Shown piece after piece: positions 11,303 through 64,000 of a DNA stretch of 64,000 bases (the stretch's first letter is position 1; each line of letters opens with the position of its first letter). The notes beneath the pieces were generated by a model, which worked only from the letters and a program-made list of their open reading frames with translations, was not told the origin of the DNA and made no database searches. Where the stretch lies: the IMG/VR virus record IMGVR_UViG_3300026484_000157, positions 1-64,000 of that record, one strand, 5' to 3'. The DNA comes from a virus. A program made the position numbers and the translations under genes.

Positions 11303-13576
11303 ATGGATTTCACAGTAATAAAAAGAGATGGTACCATTGAAAAATGGGATTCACATAAGATCAAAAAAACGATACAATGGGCAGTTAACAATATTGAGGG
11401 TGTAGATGCTATGACTCTTGAAAACAGTCTAAAGTTATTTATTAAACCAAATATGCAATCTACAACAATTATCAGATCACTTATTGATACTACAATGAAT
11501 TTAATGGATGATGCCAATGAAAATTGGGGGCTTGTTGCAGGTAGACTAGCAATGATGGATTTAAACAAAGAAGTTAGATATAACATGTCTAAATTTCAAA
11601 AAGTGGATGTATCAAGAAAATTTGGATACAATAAAACATACGAGAAAATCTTATGGATGGTTGAAAATGGATATTATGACAAACAAGTAATATCTGAATA
11701 CTCTGAAGCAGAACTAAAAGAAGTTATAAGTCATATGAATCCTAATATGGATGACTGTTACACTTATTCTCAGGTTACTGCGATGCAAGGGCAATATCTA
11801 CTTAGAACAGGTGATGATTTAGTTATTGAACTTCCACAAGAGATGTACATAGCAATATCACTTATTGTTGCTTCGATTGAACATCCAGACAACAAAGTTG
11901 CACAAGCAATCAGATTCTATGAAGAAATTCATGAACAATTCATATCTCCAGCTACTCCAACTGTTGCAAATATGAGAATTCCAAATGGATCAGGAACATC
12001 TTGTTCAATTGTAGTACCTGGAGATTCTTTGGACCAAATCAGTCATGCACAAACTCAAATTAAGAAGGAAACTTCTAAGGGGACTGGTTTTGGCGAATAT
12101 ATGGGATTTGTAAGATCTAGAGGATCTGATATTGCAGGACACGAGGGTGTTGCAGGGGGACAAATTCCATATATAAATGAAATTAATGCTTCAATCATCT
12201 CTACTGATCAATTAGGTGTGAGAGATGGGAATATTGCAATTTACACAGATATTTGGCATGCTGATGTATTAGATTTTGTTTCTGATCTTAAGTCTGAAAA
12301 TGGTGATCAAAGATCTAAAGCACATGATATCTTCAGAGGTCTTAATATTCCAAATCTATTTTGGGAAAGAAAAAACAATAGAGAAAAATGGACATTATTT
12401 GATCCATATGAAGTTAAGAACATCTTAGGATTCCATCTTGCAGATACTTATGGTGCAGAATTTGAGGAAGCTTATTTAAAATTAGAATCTCTTGGTCTAA
12501 AATCAGCAGTCACAATAGAAGCAAGAAAATTTTGGATTTCAATTCTTAAAAAATTACCAGAAGAAGGCGATCCTTACATCTTTTTCAGAGACCATGTAAA
12601 TGAAGTTCATGCAAATAAACATATTAATGTTGTTTATGCTTCAAATCTTTGTACTGAAATAGCATCGATATTCACTCCAGATTCTGAAATTATTGAAGAA
12701 TTTGTATCAGAAGAGAATGGTGAGAGACACTCAATAGTAAAAAGAAAACTAGGGTATGCAACTACTTGTAACCTTGTTTCTATCAATCTATCAAAACTTC
12801 CAGAATGTAAAATAAGACAAGAACAAATCATGAGAACAGCACTTAGATTTGTTGATAATGTAGTATCACTTACAAAAAATGCTAATCCATCTGCAACTGC
12901 CTTTAATGAAGATTTCAGATCAACTGGTATTGGGTATTTAGGTTATGGACATTTCATTGCGAAAAACAAACTATTATATGGTAAAACTGATGCAATTAAA
13001 TTTACTGATGATTTATTGGCAGATTTGACTTATTACACATTGGATGAATCATGTGAGTTGGCAAAAGAAAAAGGTGCATATAAATTTTATGAGGGAAGCG
13101 AATGGTCGAAAGGAATATTCTTCGGACGGACTCTTGATCAATTACCAAGCAAATACAAAGATTTATATGCAAAAATGCAACTACACGGTCTTAGAAATGG
13201 TTACCTTTTTGCAATCGCACCAAATACTGGAACATCTGTTCTAACAGGTACGACTCCATCAATTTATCCAATCAAAGGATTTATTGCTGAAAAAGAAGGT
13301 ATTGCAGGTAATGTACTATCGGCAGTTCCTGAAATTGAAAAATATAGATGGTACTATAGAAACATCTCACAAGTAACTTATGAGGAATATCTATCAACAA
13401 TTGAGGTATTTCAGAAATGGGTGGATCAATCAATCTCGTGTGAGATTTATTTTATACCAGATCAACATACACCAAAAGATCTATATGACTTTTATGATAT
13501 AGCATTTAAGAAAAAGCAAAAAACTGTTTATTACTGTAAGAATAAAAGAATCACATGTAAATCATGTGCTAATTAA
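11303..13576 (+). CDS. nrdA: Ribonucleotide reductase class Ia alpha subunit
   Basis: ATP-cone VIKRDG, SPATP, SNLCTEI, TCNL, APNTG, YY pair, C-terminal CKSC. Confidence 0.96.
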   Translation: MDFTVIKRDGTIEKWDSHKIKKTIQWAVNNIEGVDAMTLENSLKLFIKPNMQSTTIIRSLIDTTMNLMDDANENWGLVAGRLAMMDLNKEVRYNMSKFQKVDVSRKFGYNKTYEKILWMVENGYYDKQVISEYSEAELKEVISHMNPNMDDCYTYSQVTAMQGQYLLRTGDDLVIELPQEMYIAISLIVASIEHPDNKVAQAIRFYEEIHEQFISPATPTVANMRIPNGSGTSCSIVVPGDSLDQISHAQTQIKKETSKGTGFGEYMGFVRSRGSDIAGHEGVAGGQIPYINEINASIISTDQLGVRDGNIAIYTDIWHADVLDFVSDLKSENGDQRSKAHDIFRGLNIPNLFWERKNNREKWTLFDPYEVKNILGFHLADTYGAEFEEAYLKLESLGLKSAVTIEARKFWISILKKLPEEGDPYIFFRDHVNEVHANKHINVVYASNLCTEIASIFTPDSEIIEEFVSEENGERHSIVKRKLGYATTCNLVSINLSKLPECKIRQEQIMRTALRFVDNVVSLTKNANPSATAFNEDFRSTGIGYLGYGHFIAKNKLLYGKTDAIKFTDDLLADLTYYTLDESCELAKEKGAYKFYEGSEWSKGIFFGRTLDQLPSKYKDLYAKMQLHGLRNGYLFAIAPNTGTSVLTGTTPSIYPIKGFIAEKEGIAGNVLSAVPEIEKYRWYYRNISQVTYEEYLSTIEVFQKWVDQSISCEIYFIPDQHTPKDLYDFYDIAFKKKQKTVYYCKNKRITCKSCAN

Positions 13577-13588
13577 AAGGACAAACAA

Positions 13589-14668
13589 ATGACACCACCA
13601 TCAGGATTTTCAGATGCTAAGAAGATGACTCTTCTAACTAAGCTTCAAATGTTCAATTCAGAAGGACAATCTTTCAATAACCCAATTATTGGAGGTAACC
13701 CAACTGGGTTACTTGTAACAAATATGTCTAGATATAAAAAAGACATATTTAGATTATATCAATATGGAGTTTCAATTCATTGGATTCCAGAGAAAGTAGA
13801 TTTATCTAATGATAAGAAAGACTATTTATGTTTGTTACCAGAAGATAAATATGGATATGATCACATATTATCATTTTTGATATTTTTGGATTCAATTCAG
13901 ACTATACACCCAATGCAATTGGCTATGTTCCTTACTGCACCTGAGTTCAATCTATTACTAGCTATTCAAACATTTCAGGAGGCTATACACTCTCAATCTT
14001 ATTCATTCATAACTGAAACTGTAATGACAGAAGAACAAAGAGAAAGAGTATATGATCTATGGAGACATAATCCAGTTCTGAAAAAAAGAAACAAATATAT
14101 AGCAGGAACTTATCAAAATTTTATTGATAATCCAACTACTGAGAATTTTTGTAAGGCGATTTTGGCTAATTATATATTGGAAGGTATCTATTTCTATAAT
14201 GGATTTAAATTCTTTTACAATCTTGCTGAAAGAGGACAAATGAATGGATCATCTGATATTATCAAACTGATAAATAGAGATGAGGTTTACCACATTTTAA
14301 TCTATGAATTATTCATAGATGTACTTAAATCAGAAGGTCACTGGGTACTTACAAAAGAAGATGAAGAAGCATTTTTTGAAGAGGCAGTAATGCAAGAAAT
14401 TGAATTTTCTGTTGGTGCACTAGAAGAATGTCTAGGGTTCTCAAGACCGATAATCGAGGAATATACTTATTACTTGGCAAATAAGAGATTAACTGCAATT
14501 GGGAACACAGACAACAAATGGAAAAACTATACAAAGAACCCAAGAAGAAAATATGATTCAATCATTGAAGCAGATGGTGAGGTGGAATCAGATGAAAATG
14601 TATTCACTGGTGGCTCAACTGCTTATGTTAAAGCGGATTCATTAGAAGGGTGGGATGACCTTGAATAA
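13589..14668 (+). CDS. nrdB: Ribonucleotide reductase class I beta subunit
   Basis: WIPE, LDSIQ, EAIHSQSY, LEGIYFY, RDEVYH di-metal ligands and radical Tyr. Confidence 0.95.
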   Translation: MTPPSGFSDAKKMTLLTKLQMFNSEGQSFNNPIIGGNPTGLLVTNMSRYKKDIFRLYQYGVSIHWIPEKVDLSNDKKDYLCLLPEDKYGYDHILSFLIFLDSIQTIHPMQLAMFLTAPEFNLLLAIQTFQEAIHSQSYSFITETVMTEEQRERVYDLWRHNPVLKKRNKYIAGTYQNFIDNPTTENFCKAILANYILEGIYFYNGFKFFYNLAERGQMNGSSDIIKLINRDEVYHILIYELFIDVLKSEGHWVLTKEDEEAFFEEAVMQEIEFSVGALEECLGFSRPIIEEYTYYLANKRLTAIGNTDNKWKNYTKNPRRKYDSIIEADGEVESDENVFTGGSTAYVKADSLEGWDDLE

Positions 14669-56374: not shown

Positions 56375-57493
56375 ATGGCAACAATCGAAGAATTAGAAAC
56401 AGTACACACTGAGGAGTTATCGCCAATAACAGTTGTTAGTGCAGGAGATATCGTAGCACCAGCACCGCTTGATATCAGTAATGTAGATGTTACAAGTAAA
56501 TTTACTGCAAAAACAGTTAATGCAGGAGCAATCTCAGCATTTAGTTTAGCTACTCCAGATGAAGTTACTTATGATAAAATTTCTACTGATGAAGAAGTTA
56601 CAAATGAAACACTTAACAGAACTGCTGAAACTTTGGCACAATCAGTTAATGAGAAACTTGGTGCATGGTCAGGTGTAGTATCTACATCAGTTAACGGTTT
56701 AAGAGATGAGACAGATTCTGCAATTACTACATTAGTTGGTAATATCAATGCACAATTAACTCAATTAAAAGCTGAAGGTGATTCACAAGTTGAAGATATT
56801 AATGTACAAATTGATGCATTAATTGACGACATGAACAGCCAAATGCAAGTCATCAGAGTTAAAAATGGTGAGCAATCAGCATTAACAGCAGCAAAACTGA
56901 ATGAAGTATCTGGTCAACTTTCTGTTAATATTGAAAAAGTTAAAAACATAGCAGATAATGCACAATTAAAAATTGCAGCACTAGATGATGTTTACAAAAC
57001 TGATGCTGAAGCAGCAGCAAGAATTCAAGCAGTAAATGATCTTATCACATCTCTTAATGGTGCAGATCTGGACTTCATCCAAGCGGTTGATGGTGCGATT
57101 GATGAGCTTAATGCAATCAGCAGAATACAAGCTAAATCAGTTGTTATGAATTCATCAACTGGTGTTTATAACTTCAACACAGCAAATGAAGGTTTCGGTG
57201 AGTTCTTAGCAGCAACTGATTATGAAGTTTCTGTAGAAGTTATTGACAATGACAGAGTTGAATCAACAGTTGTAAACAAAACTGAAAATGGATTTGACAT
57301 TAGTTGTATCTCAAAAGGTGTTCATTTTAGACCACAACCACATGATGGATCAGTTACTCCAGTAACATTATCAGTTACTTTAGTATACCACAAGAGAAAC
57401 CCATTAACATTTAATGTTGATACACTTAACACTTCTTTTGTAACAGATGGTGCAGGTACTGATGAAAATACAGTAGGTGCTGAAGAAGAATAG
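56375..57493 (+). CDS. Coiled-coil fibre-like virion protein
   Basis: AAGGAG RBS, long heptads, C-terminal beta domain (NKTENGF.I). Confidence 0.6.
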   Translation: MATIEELETVHTEELSPITVVSAGDIVAPAPLDISNVDVTSKFTAKTVNAGAISAFSLATPDEVTYDKISTDEEVTNETLNRTAETLAQSVNEKLGAWSGVVSTSVNGLRDETDSAITTLVGNINAQLTQLKAEGDSQVEDINVQIDALIDDMNSQMQVIRVKNGEQSALTAAKLNEVSGQLSVNIEKVKNIADNAQLKIAALDDVYKTDAEAAARIQAVNDLITSLNGADLDFIQAVDGAIDELNAISRIQAKSVVMNSSTGVYNFNTANEGFGEFLAATDYEVSVEVIDNDRVESTVVNKTENGFDISCISKGVHFRPQPHDGSVTPVTLSVTLVYHKRNPLTFNVDTLNTSFVTDGAGTDENTVGAEEE

Positions 57494-57540
57494 CATAATT
57501 TAATATCTACCTCTTCGGTAGATATTATGCTATTCAATTC
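57491..57540 (+). terminator. Intergenic stem-loop (terminator or processing signal)
   Basis: TAATATCTACC/GGTAGATATTA stem extended by TAGCA/TGCTA; weak T-tract. Confidence 0.55.
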
Positions 57541-57560
57541 AAATAAAAGGAGAAGTAAAC

Positions 57561-58997
57561 ATGGCAATTAAAAATTATGATCAAGCCGTATCAGATGGAG
57601 ATATCTGGGTATGGGAAGCTAATGATATTGCTTCGAATAGTAGATTCAATCAAAATGTAAAATTTGCGACTGATCAACTTAATGAATTTAAAGAATTAGC
57701 AACTACTCAATTTGGGCTAGTTAAAGCTGATGTTACTGCAAACTTAACTAAAATAGAAGGACTCATCAGTAATGTTACTGAGAATCTATCTAAAATAGAG
57801 ACTAAAGTTGCGATAGAAGACTTTAATAATACAATTACTGCTATTAATAACAGTGTTACGGAGATTGTTAAAACTATCAATAATTTAGATTCTGTTTATC
57901 AAACAGATTCGGAAGCAGCAGACACTATAAATTCAGTGAATGAAGCATGGTTAAATGCTGATGGGTCACTTAGTGAAACATTAACAGCATTAGTAAACGA
58001 CAGATATAATAAATCTGAAATTGATGATAAATTGGCTATAAAAGCTAACATCTCAAATGTTTATGATAAAACAACTATGGTTGGTAAACTTTCTGCAAAA
58101 TTAGATGTAGTTGGTGGAGAAATCAAAGGTAGCATAACACCTGATGAAACTAACAGTTATGACTTAGGTAATGACAGTAAAATGTTTAAATCGGTCAATG
58201 CTATTACAGTTAATACAACAACAGTTAATGCAACGACAGTTAATGCTGAAAATCTTTATGATAAGGATGCTACAGATGACATTGCTACTGCTCTTGATAA
58301 TAAAAAAGAAGATAAAGGTGTATCTTATAAAAAAGAAGACACTGATAGGTTAATTTCGGATCTAGATGATCGAAAAGCTAATAAATCTGATATTTATACA
58401 TCTGCAGAAATAGATTCTAAAATGGCAACATCAGCTTATGGTATCAAATACAAATGGGCAGATGCCGATGCAAGAGATAATCAAGCAGGTATGAAACAAG
58501 ATGAGCAAGGTGTTCAATCTGACACTAGAACAGTTTATAAATATAATGATGGTGCTTGGGAAGAATTCTATAAATTAGATGGTGTCCACAATCATGATGA
58601 TAAATATTATACTAAACCTCAATCTGATTCATTGTTAGATGGGAAAGCCGATAAATCAAAAACATTCACTAAAACTGAAGTTACTGATAAATTAGGTAGT
58701 AAAGTTGATAAAATATCTGGTAAAGGTCTTTCTACTAACGATTTTACTGATGAACACAAAACAGCATTAGATGACTGGATTAATGGTGATACAAATTTCG
58801 ATTTAACACCTGCAACAGTTGACAAACTCGGTGGTGTTAAGCCTGATGGTGCAGTTTCTACACAAGCAGATGAGAATGGTGTTATTAGTGTTACAGGTTA
58901 CAATGACTTAATTGACAATGTAGCTAAGTTAACAAGTATAGTAGCAACTCAAAATGCAACAATTTCAAAACTATGTACAAGTGTATTTAGTGACTAA
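57561..58997 (+). CDS. Tail/collar fibre protein
   Basis: Y.K.E.D repeats, HNHDDKYYTK, KVDKISGKGLSTNDFT, PAT.DKLGGVK fibre motifs. Confidence 0.75.
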   Translation: MAIKNYDQAVSDGDIWVWEANDIASNSRFNQNVKFATDQLNEFKELATTQFGLVKADVTANLTKIEGLISNVTENLSKIETKVAIEDFNNTITAINNSVTEIVKTINNLDSVYQTDSEAADTINSVNEAWLNADGSLSETLTALVNDRYNKSEIDDKLAIKANISNVYDKTTMVGKLSAKLDVVGGEIKGSITPDETNSYDLGNDSKMFKSVNAITVNTTTVNATTVNAENLYDKDATDDIATALDNKKEDKGVSYKKEDTDRLISDLDDRKANKSDIYTSAEIDSKMATSAYGIKYKWADADARDNQAGMKQDEQGVQSDTRTVYKYNDGAWEEFYKLDGVHNHDDKYYTKPQSDSLLDGKADKSKTFTKTEVTDKLGSKVDKISGKGLSTNDFTDEHKTALDDWINGDTNFDLTPATVDKLGGVKPDGAVSTQADENGVISVTGYNDLIDNVAKLTSIVATQNATISKLCTSVFSD

Positions 58998-59566: not shown

Positions 59567-59621
59567 TATAACAATTGAAATATTTGTAGATTTTGAAATC
59601 ACAATTGAATTGGTGGTATAA
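59556..59621 (+). CDS. Possible 21-aa micro-protein
   Basis: MKHNITIEIFVDFEITIELVV, with AAGGTGG upstream, fills the intergenic gap. Confidence 0.3.
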   Translation: MKHNITIEIFVDFEITIELVV

Positions 59622-59623
59622 TA

Positions 59624-60010
59624 ATGGCATCTTTTAACTATAAAATCAAGGGAAAGATTACAATTTCTCAAGGTGGTGGAATTAAAATTAATCTACCACT
59701 AAAAAACATGGATGGGACTCCATTATTGGCAGATGATCTATTTGGCAAATTCTCAATAAGAAATATAAAGGAGATGGGAAAATTAGATTCTGAAGCATTA
59801 ATATATGGTGCAACTCCAATTGAATATAATGATGACATTAATATGAACAAGGCAATCATTCATTTAGAGCCAGAGAAGACTAAAGATCTAGTACCTTCAA
59901 AGAAACCATATATTTTAACATTTCAAATTTCATCTAAAAATCAACAATTAAGTAGAGAGTTTTATTTTGAACTTTCAGTAACACCAAATGGAATATATTC
60001 CATATACTAA
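59624..60010 (+). CDS. Ig-like (BppU N-terminal-like) virion protein
   Basis: I.QG......L...DG.P..., L.PE.T..L pattern. Confidence 0.5.
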   Translation: MASFNYKIKGKITISQGGGIKINLPLKNMDGTPLLADDLFGKFSIRNIKEMGKLDSEALIYGATPIEYNDDINMNKAIIHLEPEKTKDLVPSKKPYILTFQISSKNQQLSREFYFELSVTPNGIYSIY

Positions 60011-60019
60011 GGAGAAAAA

Positions 60020-60613
60020 ATGTACTTACTAAACACAGCAGACTATGTTGAGATGGATACAAAATATCCAGTAGTTTTCAGATTATCTGAAGATGCACTA
60101 GGTCTTAAAAATTGGGGAGCTACTCTATACGATATAGATAGTGGGACAACAACAGTTGTTCAAGATGTTGAATCAGTTGAGGTTGCACCATATGTTGCAG
60201 TTGCTAAACTAGATGGATATCACCCAGCAGGAACTTCAAAATTTAAACTTGACGATGTAGGACAGATAGCAACTGGAAACACTATCAGAATTGCAAATTC
60301 TATATTCAATATATTATCAGTTGAGTCAGAAGATAACTTAATAACTGTAGATAGAAGACTATCAGCAGACTTAAACCCAACAGATGATGATCCAGTTACA
60401 ATTTTACATGCAACTATTCCATCACTAATCGGTGTATATAAAATTTCTGCTTTAGCAACTGAAATTGGTAGATTCATTTTAACTATTAACAATTCTGATA
60501 ATAGTGGTCTTGTTAATCCAATCGATAATGTTATTGAAGTTGTACCTACTCTTGATTCAACTGTTGGGCAAAATGGTAGATTGAATCCAATATCTAATGG
60601 ATCAATAACTTAA
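60020..60613 (+). CDS. Hypothetical beta-rich virion protein
   Basis: AAGGAG RBS, 197 aa. Confidence 0.6.
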   Translation: MYLLNTADYVEMDTKYPVVFRLSEDALGLKNWGATLYDIDSGTTTVVQDVESVEVAPYVAVAKLDGYHPAGTSKFKLDDVGQIATGNTIRIANSIFNILSVESEDNLITVDRRLSADLNPTDDDPVTILHATIPSLIGVYKISALATEIGRFILTINNSDNSGLVNPIDNVIEVVPTLDSTVGQNGRLNPISNGSIT

Positions 60614-60628
60614 TCTAAGGAAAAAATT

Positions 60629-60946
60629 ATGACTGAAGAAAAAATAGAAAAGGGAATCAAAGAATACAACGATTGGTGGGCAAAACACAATTTTGGCACA
60701 AGAGTTAGTTTGTTTACCTTTATACTACTTTTAATAATCGTAGTTTTATATCCATTTCTAGCACCAGCAAAAGAGGTGATAGTAGATGGAGTTACAACAT
60801 TAGTAACTAAAGATATAAAACATTATGACTTAATCCTATCGACTGTAACTAATACAGCATTCTGGGGATTTGCAGTAGTAACTGTTGGTGCAAATACATT
60901 AGTGAAATTAGCTGATGCATGGGCTAAAGTGAAATCGGTAAAATAA
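60629..60946 (+). CDS. Holin (putative)
   Basis: Two hydrophobic helices, basic C-terminus, upstream of spanin-like genes. Confidence 0.55.
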   Translation: MTEEKIEKGIKEYNDWWAKHNFGTRVSLFTFILLLIIVVLYPFLAPAKEVIVDGVTTLVTKDIKHYDLILSTVTNTAFWGFAVVTVGANTLVKLADAWAKVKSVK

Positions 60947-60947
60947 G

Positions 60948-61256
60948 ATGCAAGTTTTTTCAAGCTTAAAAGCTCTTTTTTATGGATTAATAGCTATCGT
61001 TGGTGCATTTGGTATTTTCAAATACAAAAGAGCTGTAACAACTGCTGAAGAGTCTGAAAAAGAGACTCAAGCAGTAAAACAACAAATGCATGTTCAAGAA
61101 GAAGTGCATAAAGATGAAATAGCTACTGTTAAGATGAAAGAAGATATAGCAGTAACCTCAGCAAAAATTGAAAGAGAAATTGATAATGAAGTTAAGACTA
61201 CTATCGAAAAAATTCAATCAACACCCGATAATGAAGAATATGAGATAAAATTATGA
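60948..61256 (+). CDS. Inner-membrane spanin (Rz-like, putative)
   Basis: N-terminal TM followed by a coiled coil. Confidence 0.6.
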   Translation: MQVFSSLKALFYGLIAIVGAFGIFKYKRAVTTAEESEKETQAVKQQMHVQEEVHKDEIATVKMKEDIAVTSAKIEREIDNEVKTTIEKIQSTPDNEEYEIKL

Positions 61257-61588
61257 TAAAAATACTACTATCAATACTACTAATACTATCAATATCAGGA
61301 TGTACAACTAAAGTTATTGAGCCAGTTTACATAAAAGCGGAATGCCCTAAACTTAAAATTTATGATAATAATGCAACATTTACTCTTGGTAAGGTTTACA
61401 ATTCTAATGGTAAAATTTGCATAAAAAGTTGGGGTACATGTGTTCCTAAGGACAAAATTATAGAATTAGTGAATTATACTTCTTCATTGAAAGAAACAAT
61501 CTTAAAATATGAAAATCAGATCACTAAGTACAATAATTACAAGGGAACACAGAATGGATTTAGGGAAAATATCAACTCATCTAAATGA
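61253..61588 (+). CDS. Outer-membrane spanin lipoprotein (Rz1-like, putative)
   Basis: LSISG-C lipobox, CPKL, overlaps the i-spanin-like gene. Confidence 0.65.
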   Translation: MIKILLSILLILSISGCTTKVIEPVYIKAECPKLKIYDNNATFTLGKVYNSNGKICIKSWGTCVPKDKIIELVNYTSSLKETILKYENQITKYNNYKGTQNGFRENINSSK

Positions 61589-62033
61589 ACTAAAAGATAA
61601 CTTAATTTATACCGTTCAGTCATCGGAAAACACTAGCGATTTGTCTTCTCGATTGATTGAACTTACAAAAACTGATCCAGATAATGCTGACATTTACCAA
61701 TTAATAGTACTGGTCAACTCAAATCTAGAAACAGATCATAAATCTTTTAAAGCAATCACTATAAAAATCATAAATGACATGATCACTTCAAAATTAACAA
61801 TTTTACAAACATTAGGAACTATGGATACAAGAGTTAAAACATTAGAATCTAAGATAAAAGCCGAGACTAAAGGTGTTAAAGTTCCTTTTGTAGGAAACCT
61901 AAAGCTCAAAGATTTATGGTTATTTGTGGTTTCATTATTCACAATTTTGGTGCTTTCTTACAAAATTGTACCACAAGAGACTGCAAAAGTAATGGAAGGT
62001 ATAACAACCATATCAAAGAAAGGTGGGAAATAA
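61554..62033 (+). CDS. Membrane protein (cytoplasmic helical domain plus C-terminal TM)
   Basis: Start reassigned to ATG 61554 (AAGGGA RBS); TM LWLFVVSLFTILVLSY. Confidence 0.6.
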   Translation: MDLGKISTHLNELKDNLIYTVQSSENTSDLSSRLIELTKTDPDNADIYQLIVLVNSNLETDHKSFKAITIKIINDMITSKLTILQTLGTMDTRVKTLESKIKAETKGVKVPFVGNLKLKDLWLFVVSLFTILVLSYKIVPQETAKVMEGITTISKKGGK

Positions 62034-62767
62034 TGCTAAATAAACTATTTCGGCTATTTAAATCAAAAAATAAACCAGAAGATTCTATTGAGGAAACTTC
62101 AAGTATAAACTTTAGTAATTATATGTCACCCAAAGATCTTAGACAAAACTATGAGGTATTAGCAAAAATACCTGAATTGGTTATGCCAAAAAATTCAAAG
62201 CCAAATATATTGTTAATGGATGATAACATAGGTACTGTATCTTTTTTAAAAGATGACTTAGAATCATATCATTACCTCGCTCAAAGAATAAGAACTAATA
62301 ATCTATCAGATATGTCAGTTAGATTATATAATGTATATAAAGATCTAACTGATAAAGAGATTAATTTCTTAATGAATTTCGATTTATCAAAATATAATAT
62401 CATTGAGGCAACAGGAGATATGGCAGGTTTCTCTGTTGAAAATGCAATCAAAAATGGGGCACATTTTGATATTGCAGTATTGGATATTATTTTAGGTGGA
62501 TATAAAATATCTAAAAGTGAGAACATAATATATGATGGAATTGATATTTATAAAATGCTCATAGAATCTAACCCAAAAATAATAATCAAATTTTACACTG
62601 GTTGTGTTCTCTCAAAATATAGCTATGAATCAATTAAATTCGACAAAATTTTTGGTGATGATATTAATAATTATGCAATTATTAAAGATGAAGACTTCAA
62701 ATTCAGAAGAAAACAACTATTAAAAATACTAATTAAATCGGAAAAGCTGATAAATGAAAGCAATTAA
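62033..62767 (+). CDS. Stand-alone response regulator receiver protein
   Basis: NILLMDD, FDIAVLDIIL (phospho-acceptor Asp), DGID, FYTG, IIKD; no output domain; start at TAATG 62033. Confidence 0.8.
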   Translation: MLNKLFRLFKSKNKPEDSIEETSSINFSNYMSPKDLRQNYEVLAKIPELVMPKNSKPNILLMDDNIGTVSFLKDDLESYHYLAQRIRTNNLSDMSVRLYNVYKDLTDKEINFLMNFDLSKYNIIEATGDMAGFSVENAIKNGAHFDIAVLDIILGGYKISKSENIIYDGIDIYKMLIESNPKIIIKFYTGCVLSKYSYESIKFDKIFGDDINNYAIIKDEDFKFRRKQLLKILIKSEKLINESN

Positions 62768-64000
62768 ACTAGATGAATCAATAAGGTCAAGAATTAACAG
62801 AAGTTTGTTATCTTATCTAATATTAGTCATAACAAGTTATAACCTATTTACTTATTTTGTCACAACCAATTATGTGGATCAACAAAACCAACTAGTAACT
62901 GAAATAACTAAAGAGATGAACGATTTTGATCCTGAGGTTGTATGTAACATAACTGGGTGTGACTCAATAACAATATATACAAATACTAATAAAGAAATCA
63001 CATATAGAAGTATTAATGGCTCTTTAGAAAAGATAAACTATGAAGAGTTACCAAGTCACATAAGCATAGGATCACTACAAATATTCACTGATTTATCTTT
63101 GGGATTTAGCACTAAATATAATACGAATATTCGGATACCTCTTCCATCATTCTTAATAATATTATCTATCTCATATGTGGTATTCATAATTTTATCAGTA
63201 TCATTATTTAGAATGTTCCTTAATAATATTGCAGTCGAATCTAAATGGGCTGATATTATGAATTTTGCAGGTAAAGAAGCTCAATTATCAAACAAAAACA
63301 TGACCCTATTAACTGAGGATATACATCATGAGATGAAGACTCCACTAGCAATAATAGTAAACAAGGTTGACTATCTACGAGAATTCATATATGATCTTCA
63401 AAGAATTGTTAACAGTTCAACTGCAGATAGGGGATACCAACGGAAGTTAGACTTAAAAATTATGGGATGTAAGATGGAATGTGCATCTTGTTTGGCTTTT
63501 AAAAAAGGAACTGGATGCACGAGTTTAAACAAGAATGCTAAAATTGAAGAGGCTTTTGAATTAATCGACTTTTATACTAACTCAATATATAACATATTAG
63601 AGAGAATGAAAAACTTCAAGAATATTAAATATTCAAATGGTAACAAAACATTATATGACATTGTAAATGCATCGGTATCGACAATGAAGTTACATCATAA
63701 AGGATTATTTGAATATTTAATTGATGACAATCTAAAAAACCTAAAATTAGACCATGATGGGCTAAAAAATGAAGATCTACTGAATCTATTTCTTAATCAC
63801 ATAAAGAACTCACTTGAAGCTAACTCTACTTTCATATCAATAAACACAATCCAATATAAAGACAGATTTATTTACATTGATATTGTTGACAATGGAAATG
63901 GGATACCTAATGAAGCCTTAAACCAAGTATACGATCCTAATTTTTCAACTAAATCAGGTAATGGTGATGTAAGAGGTATTGGAATGTACCTAGCAAAATC
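62754..64000 (+). CDS. Membrane sensor histidine kinase (3' truncated; not in the ORF track)
   Basis: Own translation: two TM helices, H-box IHHEMKTPL, N-box NHIKNS, G1 DNGNGI, F-box FSTK, G2 RGIGMY. Confidence 0.92.
   Translation, partial: MKAIKLDESIRSRINRSLLSYLILVITSYNLFTYFVTTNYVDQQNQLVTEITKEMNDFDPEVVCNITGCDSITIYTNTNKEITYRSINGSLEKINYEELPSHISIGSLQIFTDLSLGFSTKYNTNIRIPLPSFLIILSISYVVFIILSVSLFRMFLNNIAVESKWADIMNFAGKEAQLSNKNMTLLTEDIHHEMKTPLAIIVNKVDYLREFIYDLQRIVNSSTADRGYQRKLDLKIMGCKMECASCLAFKKGTGCTSLNKNAKIEEAFELIDFYTNSIYNILERMKNFKNIKYSNGNKTLYDIVNASVSTMKLHHKGLFEYLIDDNLKNLKLDHDGLKNEDLLNLFLNHIKNSLEANSTFISINTIQYKDRFIYIDIVDNGNGIPNEALNQVYDPNFSTKSGNGDVRGIGMYLAK

Follow-up and report, generated by a model that had tools for sequence, protein, structure and literature searches.

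Introduction

In bacteria, two-component systems such as CheA/CheY, KinA/Spo0F and DivJ-PleC/DivK combine a kinase with a HisKA-type H box and a HATPase_c domain with a receiver that carries the DD/D/T/K residues and has no output domain; the targets of such single-domain receivers include motors, kinases and the adaptors of proteases. Here we describe a cassette with what appear to be the same ingredients in a viral genome, IMG/VR record IMGVR_UViG_3300026484_000157, of which positions 1 to 64,000 (designated the window) had been annotated in a first pass from the sequence. Close to the end of the window, directly behind holin- and spanin-like genes, three genes encode a tail-anchored membrane protein, a divergent stand-alone receiver and a membrane sensor histidine kinase, and we lean towards the view that they form a self-contained, portable signalling circuit of the phage. 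The features that make this cassette unusual are its viral carrier, the divergence of the receiver, a constant third membrane component (the tail-anchored gene) and its spread across many large phages. The top structural matches of the receiver are CheY, Spo0F-type and other receiver domains; unlike the receivers of the bacterial systems, however, it lies outside the Pfam model and contains inserts, and the kinase has no family-level relative among the matches listed in a scan of bacterial genomes.

Phages are known to sense host or phage signals via transcription factors, examples being the VqmA homologue of phage VP882 and the arbitrium receptor (PMC7790227). An accessory membrane histidine kinase is likewise present in the Clostridioides difficile phage phiCDHM1, which carries AgrD, AgrB and AgrC from the host agr locus and for which the abstract mentions no response regulator among the genes of the phage (Hargreaves et al. 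2014; PMC3901668). The cassette described here differs from phiCDHM1 in that kinase and receiver occur together, that there is no close host counterpart and that the setting is of the Gram-negative type (spanins, porin). Large phages also contain another divergent receiver fold, the cREC of jumbo phages, which is reported never to occur in histidine-kinase systems and to be linked to NAD/ADP-ribose enzymes (Iyer, Anantharaman and Aravind 2021; PMC7824862), whereas the receiver described here always stands beside a kinase. In the literature, supplements excluded, no paper describing a phage cassette of kinase, receiver and membrane protein was found, and a complete phage-owned circuit from kinase to receiver has apparently not been described previously. 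If our interpretation is true, virulent phages would gain a fast sensory input at the cell envelope.

Components of the cassette

The cassette of the window phage consists of the following five genes, the last two of which belong to an optional extension and lie beyond the window:

61554..62033, + strand, tail-anchored membrane protein of 159 amino acids counted from the Met at 61554 (C-terminal transmembrane helix)
62033..62767, + strand, predicted stand-alone divergent receiver (REC) of 244 amino acids (codon of D151 at 62483-62485)
62754..64109 (window end at 64000), + strand, predicted membrane sensor histidine kinase of 451 amino acids (codon of H192 at 63327-63329)
64106..64360, beyond the window, + strand, small putative secreted protein of 84 amino acids (signal-peptide-like N-terminus)
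64357..65478, beyond the window, + strand, porin-like predicted outer-membrane beta-barrel of 373 amino acids (AlphaFold2 model, Foldseek)

The histidine kinase possesses every catalytic motif, and kinase activity is predicted from its sequence. The intact H, N, G1, F and G2 boxes and the periplasm-sized loop between two transmembrane helices that the first-pass annotation had reported were all located: the H box HHEMKTPL at residue 191, the N box at 348, the motifs DNGNGIP at 379, PNFSTK at 395 and RGIGMYL at 407, and a loop of about 96 amino acids between transmembrane helices placed by hydropathy at residues 18-36 and 133-151. Among 31 aligned kinase sequences from the protein index, H192, E193, P197, N348, N352, D379, G381, G383, G408 and G410 are invariant, and a pair of periplasmic cysteines, C64 and C69, is conserved in at least 90 % of the sequences. 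The HATPase_c domain (PF02518) is recognised with 51.8 bits (cut-off 26.4), whereas the Pfam HisKA domain stays below its cut-off (E 0.014, 15.8 bits versus 26.9). In NCBIfam, 54 kinase families match the protein via the ATPase domain only and far under every curated cut-off, so that it belongs to no named kinase family; AtoS, ZraS and other bacterial kinases reach 30-66 bits, which reflects generic similarity of the ATPase domain.

Relatives of the cassette proteins had to be collected with alignments, since searches with single sequences were empty: the kinase retrieved no locus from IMG/VR, and the receiver gave no match in the GenBank phages or IMG/VR and matched only itself in an index of 5.8 billion proteins. 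For the kinase, the protein index yielded 132 related proteins at E ≤ 0.001 among 5,618 candidates, of which 94 (P0003-P0096) have E values of 4e-69 to 1e-33. A comparison of the kinase with 50,697 GenBank phage records yielded eight matches, each covering the 18-24 % of the query that corresponds to the ATPase domain, and several of these records are in fact contigs of bacteria that were deposited under phage.

In the kinase, the H-box helix is separated from the remainder of the dimerisation domain by a CX3CX2CX8C insert (window 63468-63518, residues 239-255), the cysteines of which, C239, C243, C246 and C255, have their codons at 63468, 63480, 63489 and 63516. Similar Cys-rich inserts are present in the closest kinase relatives P0003, P0004 and P0097 and are missing from most of the family; the insert could be a metal or Fe-S site.

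According to its predicted fold and pocket, the protein encoded at 62033 is a receiver, one that lies outside the curated Pfam model. The protein itself shows no match to Pfam at E ≤ 1, including Response_reg (PF00072), and this domain is touched by only five of its 22 relatives, the best of them at E 7.6e-4. The profile search suggested in the first pass had a divided outcome, HATPase_c being found above the cut-off and both HisKA and REC remaining below threshold. The phosphorylation pocket reported there, a pair of acidic residues followed by D, T and K, is retained among the relatives: in an alignment of 22 receiver sequences drawn from the viral loci, with a mean column identity of 26 %, all have D63, D64, D151 and K218, and at least 90 % have T189. 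The AlphaFold2 model calculated from this alignment has a predicted local distance difference test score (pLDDT) of 86.5 and a predicted template modelling score of 0.78, displays the (beta-alpha)5 order of receivers and places the pocket residues at the ends of beta1, beta3, beta4 and beta5 (strands 58-63, 147-151, 184-189 and 215-217). Foldseek retrieved 21 PDB structures at E ≤ 0.001; among the matches listed, all are receiver-domain structures or engineered fusions containing one, and the stand-alone receiver domains have template modelling (TM) scores of 0.63-0.71 by target. The sequence profile of the family points in the same direction, as its 19 weak matches among PDB sequences at E ≤ 1 (best E 0.0027) comprise 18 receivers and one engineered fusion with CheY. 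In addition to the canonical fold, the model has an N-terminal tail, about 55 amino acids long and predicted with low confidence, two helices after alpha1 and a beta-hairpin right after the acceptor aspartate.

In a set of 1.84 billion representative sequences, the receiver profile identified 366 proteins at E ≤ 0.001, of which 143 are at E ≤ 1e-30; the best 150 of the 366 are 165-308 amino acids long. As judged from these sequences, the receiver family is sizeable and made up of free-standing receivers that lack an output domain, and it is distinct enough for the profile not to retrieve ordinary receivers. This agrees with the earlier description of the window protein as a receiver without output domain, the model consisting of a single REC fold and a disordered N-terminal tail. 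An entire viral branch of the fold is overlooked by the Pfam receiver model. In L002, L005, L007, L009, L011, L018 and L024 (loci are numbered as in our collection, see below), the N-terminal 60-90 amino acids of the receiver homologues contain Cys-rich CxxC-type motifs, none of which is present in the window receiver. In L013 (8174-8978), two small open reading frames (ORFs) 3' of the kinase gene resemble ordinary receiver domains by eye (an acidic pair, then an Asp after the second strand); they match phrog_731 and phrog_5982, the latter of which is also touched by the kinase.

The third constant component is the membrane protein encoded at 61554, which has a helical N-terminal part and a transmembrane helix at residues 116-134 of 159. 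A protein of 100-170 amino acids with a helical N-terminus and a single C-terminal transmembrane helix is encoded directly upstream of the receiver gene in 22 of 22 receiver-bearing loci, in two of which the gene was masked at first by an antisense ORF in the ORF filter. The partnership with the receiver that the first-pass annotation had proposed for this protein is thereby strengthened. The tail-anchored proteins fall into several BLAST clusters and show one common architecture when aligned. They have no family in Pfam, PHROG, NCBIfam or PADLOC, and in the ESM Atlas neither a match of at least 0.9 nor a structural match with a TM score above 0.5 was obtained. A role as an Hpt-type phosphorelay protein was considered and ruled out, because not one column of the alignment is invariant and a conserved histidine is therefore lacking. 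When residues 50-244 of the receiver were co-folded with the cytoplasmic portion of the membrane protein, the score was 0.00 in a run without controls, which speaks neither for nor against binding.

The small putative secreted protein is encoded 3' of the kinase gene in 11 of 24 loci, and its 11 sequences share the invariant residues W47 and R49; in the window phage, its start codon overlaps the kinase stop codon (ATGA). Scans with NCBIfam and other profiles assigned it to no known family. The porin-like protein occurs in nine loci according to BLAST clustering and in ten if the positional equivalent in L024 (363 amino acids, about 17 % identity) is included. Its AlphaFold2 model (pLDDT 65.7) consists of long antiparallel strands, and the best Foldseek match is AlgE (8.7e-6), followed by chitoporin, OmpU and other porins, while the structure match in the Atlas is to a DUF3373 cluster (TM score 0.80). 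The members of the family end in a C-terminal aromatic residue, and together with the signal peptide and the large antiparallel barrel of the model this points to an outer-membrane protein. At the sequence level, the window protein belongs to no Pfam family, one of its nine relatives matches DUF3373 at 2.4e-6, the profile of the barrel family retrieved only two of its own members from the protein index and no relative from a named bacterium, and matches to PDB sequences all had E values above 0.1. A search with PF11853 (DUF3373) was uninformative, as there was no match either in the phage or in any of 14 control genomes. In L010 (10865-11998), two ORFs of 129 and 244 amino acids take the place of a single porin-like gene, which may be due to a frameshift or indicate a decaying copy.

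A known circuit built from comparable parts is that of chitoporin, the chitin-binding protein CBP and ChiS in Vibrio, in which a porin, a periplasmic binding protein and a sensor kinase cooperate. By analogy, the extended cassette may be viewed as bringing together the genes for an outer-membrane channel, a small periplasmic protein and a membrane kinase, and chitoporin is found among the fold matches of the barrel. Unlike in the Vibrio circuit, the small protein has no known family and both barrel and small protein are missing from about half of the cassettes.

Distribution and genomic setting

The collection analysed here comprises 24 loci, that is, the window and 23 IMG/VR contigs of 10-227 kb found by the scan with the kinase alignment, in which ORFs were called and clustered by BLAST. 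The receiver gene lies directly upstream of the kinase gene in 22 loci, the two exceptions being a contig that starts inside the kinase gene and L014, which has a non-receiver ORF at the position of the receiver. The unit is a core of three genes (membrane protein, receiver, kinase) with an optional two-gene envelope extension, the small secreted protein and the porin-like barrel, which is present in about half of the loci including that of the window. With 366 receiver representatives, about 94 kinase relatives, a constant third component and 23 viral contigs representing 16 kinase clusters at 50 % identity, the circuit forms a family of its own.

This family is likely, though not proven, to be phage-specific. 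When the kinase was compared with 185,579 prokaryote species, each represented by a single genome, the strongest of the matches listed had an E value of 4e-12 and comprised the ATPase domain only, and the near-identical chromosomal homologues that had been named in the first pass as a finding against its proposal were not among the matches listed.

The flanking genes vary from locus to locus. In L002, L003, L005, L007, L009, L010, L011, L019 and L023, the cassette lies on the strand opposite to both flanks. Up to three nearest neighbours per side with 60-900 amino acids were compared with the PHROGs for 23 loci (124 proteins), and none of the 25 out of 105 PHROG families listed had more than three of these proteins as matches. 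Two neighbours each matched holin families and endolysin families; other flanking genes encode a homing endonuclease, PhoH, a partition protein, an AAA ATPase, a cytidyltransferase, an exonuclease, an HNH endonuclease and proteins without assignment.

Lysis genes adjoin the cassette in five of the 24 loci, which represent three phage lineages. Homologues of the holin and spanins of the window occur in a single related contig, L024, where they are located downstream and not upstream of the cassette; the holins of the two phages are 67 % identical and the kinases about 34 %, and the cassettes lie on opposite sides of the lysis genes. In L004, and by homology in L008, an endolysin gene (E 2.1e-25) and a holin gene (E 1.4e-28) directly precede the cassette, and in L021 an endolysin gene does so (E 1.7e-27), while L022 has a gene for a small transmembrane protein at the same position. 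The synteny survey proposed with the first annotation thus revealed that adjacency to lysis genes recurs, and also that the remaining 19 loci are situated elsewhere. The link is recurrent but facultative and does not define the system, so the coupling to a lysis cassette that was originally put forward as its hallmark does not hold in general; at least nine of the other loci are opposite-strand islands.

In the window phage itself, the lysis genes and the cassette form one tightly packed chain, which begins with three genes:

60629..60946, + strand, holin-like small membrane protein of 105 amino acids (two hydrophobic segments, position)
60948..61256, + strand, i-spanin-like protein of 102 amino acids (transmembrane helix, match to PHROG Rz-like spanins)
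61253..61588, + strand, o-spanin-like lipoprotein of 111 amino acids (signal peptide, lipobox ISGC)

All six ORFs initially annotated are present on the + strand, and the chain extends past the window by the two overlapping genes of the envelope extension (64106-64360 and 64357-65478). From the stop codon at 60613 to position 65478, the intergenic distances are 15, 1, -4, -35, -1, -14, -4 and -4 nucleotides, and the junctions include three ATGA overlaps and one TAATG. A simple scan of 60500-65500 for terminator-like sites found one, located inside a coding region, at an expectation of 0.9. The reported chain of overlapping or abutting genes without a terminator is therefore borne out for all seven junctions between 60629 and 65478 (1 to -35 nucleotides). 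A sigma-70-like promoter match at 59593-59622 was given no weight, because it ends 1 nucleotide before the ATG of the gene at 59624.

Behind the chain and a gap of 51 nucleotides follows a gene for an SNF2 helicase, and genes for a DnaB-like helicase, an SLT-like protein, MazG-like proteins and polymerases lie further downstream in the same record, which has 126,269 bp and a CheckV completeness of 100. As replication genes follow the chain within the same 126-kb record, the chain is not located at the edge of a prophage, and the possibility raised in the first-pass annotation that the downstream sequence might turn out to be host chromosome is thereby removed. The window, the first 64 kb of the record, has almost all of its genes on the + strand, and the G+C content is about 31 %. 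The phage encodes a tail sheath protein, both subunits of ribonucleotide reductase and the SNF2 helicase, and looks like a virulent myovirus, because a tail sheath is present and neither an integrase nor a ParB match was found in its genome. With slightly better than even confidence, we regard the cassette as a moron-like accessory module and not as an accident of a prophage edge.

Proposed mode of action and alternatives

The interpretation to which we give slightly better than even odds, that of a portable signalling circuit owned by the phage, can be outlined as follows. A cue from the periplasm or the envelope would be sensed by the kinase loop of about 96 amino acids with its conserved Cys pair C64 and C69, and where the porin and the small secreted protein are present, these might admit and present the cue. 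The kinase would then autophosphorylate on H192 and the phosphate would pass to D151 of the receiver. Having neither a DNA-binding nor an enzymatic domain, the phosphorylated receiver would act by protein contact, the most likely target being the tail-anchored membrane protein. In the window phage, the cassette ends a string of tail-fibre and lysis genes with which it is probably co-transcribed; its products would then exert their effect at the envelope of the cell towards the end of infection, alongside the expression of the lysis genes.

Several observations weigh against this interpretation. Phosphotransfer, cue and target are all inferred; the receiver fails the Response_reg threshold of Pfam, and the few relatives that touch this model do so at 7.6e-4 or worse; and 20 sequences of the tail-anchored protein share not one invariant residue and belong to no recognisable family. 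With regard to a restriction to phages, moreover, one of the kinase homologues is labelled as a protein of a Bacteroidales metagenome-assembled genome, while further ones stem from NCBI assemblies in which contigs reach 295 kb. Finally, adjacency to lysis genes is above rough chance, with a binomial P of about 0.02 for at least three of 14 lineages at a 4 % chance each, where both the placement chance and the lineage count are rough assumptions.

This last point keeps alive the explanation that the cassette is a dedicated lysis clock, in which the kinase senses a periplasmic signal, for instance superinfection, and the phosphorylated receiver together with the membrane protein delays or advances the triggering of the holin. 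The model for such a process is lysis inhibition in phage T4, where the antiholins RI and RIII act on the holin T and a periplasmic signal changes holin triggering by contact. The three different arrangements in which cassettes abut lysis genes and the small transmembrane protein of L022 are in favour of this explanation, the overlapping junctions of the window phage fit co-expression with the holin, and an output by protein contact with a membrane partner would suit a fast post-translational switch. However, 19 of the 24 loci have no recognised lysis gene within three genes, although some may have been missed because profiles are poor at recognising holins and spanins, and many cassettes are opposite-strand islands amid genes of replication or nucleotide metabolism. 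Accessory genes tend to gather at the borders of modules, and lysis cassettes are situated there as well, so that the adjacency can arise without a shared function. Furthermore, the chemistry here would be phosphotransfer, no component of the cassette resembles an antiholin known in the PHROGs, and the membrane protein, the receiver and the kinase gave no match to the lysis category of that database. As lysis genes are adjacent in only five of 24 loci, control of lysis timing is a minority hypothesis, and we consider it rather unlikely. A bolder version, to which we assign a slightly smaller probability, is a three-component phage switch that resets holin triggering within one infection cycle, and thus a phosphotransfer-based form of lysis inhibition spread among large phages; its input might be superinfection or, via the Cys-rich inserts, a redox or metal cue of vent fluid.

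A little less probable again is that the cassette serves to hijack host signalling, either by cross-talk with two-component or CheY-type pathways of the host (motility, proteolysis adaptors, stress) or by remodelling of the envelope, for example to exclude other phages. Outer-membrane proteins are often encoded by accessory genes of phages, and the presence of one in the extended cassette would suit such a role, as would the faster divergence of the kinases (about 34 % identity) compared with the holins (67 %) between the window phage and L024. On the other hand, the receiver, with 366 proteins in 1.84 billion at E ≤ 0.001, is too divergent to be a mimic of a host CheY, the strict pairing of kinase and receiver argues for a closed circuit, and the cassette proteins match no PADLOC family, the search having returned two weak off-target matches only. 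That the cassette represents recently captured host genes or chromosomal DNA at a prophage edge, without a phage-specific role, is very improbable, for although the ATPase domain shows generic similarity to bacterial kinases and one homologue carries the Bacteroidales label, phage genes flank the locus on either side within a phage record that is complete, the best match among those listed for bacterial genomes (E 4e-12) is restricted to one domain, the NCBIfam matches are all far below their cut-offs and the cassette is conserved over 16 kinase clusters in viral contigs.

Lysis genes and further features of the phage genome

The lysis genes of the window phage are the weaker part of the annotation. 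The holin-like protein is a candidate on account of two hydrophobic segments (residues 26-44 and 68-86) and its position only; it has a Lys-rich C-terminus, no Pfam match above cut-off and no PHROG match, and its 67 % identical counterpart in L024 is encoded at 12336-12650. The i-spanin-like protein, whose gene starts 1 nucleotide past the holin stop codon, has an N-terminal transmembrane helix at residues 6-24 and matches the Rz-like PHROGs phrog_214 (E 1.6e-5) and phrog_739 (E 3.7e-4). The o-spanin-like protein, whose gene overlaps that of the i-spanin by ATGA, matches phrog_456 (Rz-like spanin, E 0.004) over residues 1-33, that is, over the signal peptide, and carries the lipobox ISGC. The two proteins thus appear to be a pair of i-spanin and lipoprotein o-spanin with weak profile support, and the trio is conserved in L024. 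Of the assignments made in the first pass, those of the spanins are accordingly backed to some extent by the PHROGs, whereas that of the holin has no profile match behind it. No endolysin gene adjoins these lysis genes. The sole endolysin candidate of the phage is the SLT-like ORF at 69124-69684 of the genome (17.7 bits at a cut-off of 21.3), which is located 8 kb from the holin gene, encodes a hydrophobic N-terminal stretch and has a TTAAAA-N17-TATA motif in front of it, at 69079. This motif occurs 15 times in the genome, with 14 copies beyond 69 kb, in the replication half, and none in the region of 56-69 kb.

No tRNA genes, which were looked for as a hint to the host, were found in the phage genome. 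A reasonable guess at the host is a member of the Campylobacterota, based on the G+C content of 31 %, the DUF3373-like barrel and the hydrothermal vent label of the metagenome that is the best-matching DNA dataset; the DUF3373 cluster of the Atlas nearest to the barrel is commonest in this phylum. The large and small subunits of a class I ribonucleotide reductase are encoded at 11303-14668 of the window, and homologues of the large subunit adjoin the cassette in L011 and L013. Among the late genes, a perfect 9-bp hairpin (ATATCTACC/GGTAGATAT, 5-nucleotide loop) is present at 57493-57561 of the window, in a gap of 67 nucleotides 3' of a gene for a protein of 372 amino acids, and may be a terminator or a stem that stabilises the RNA.

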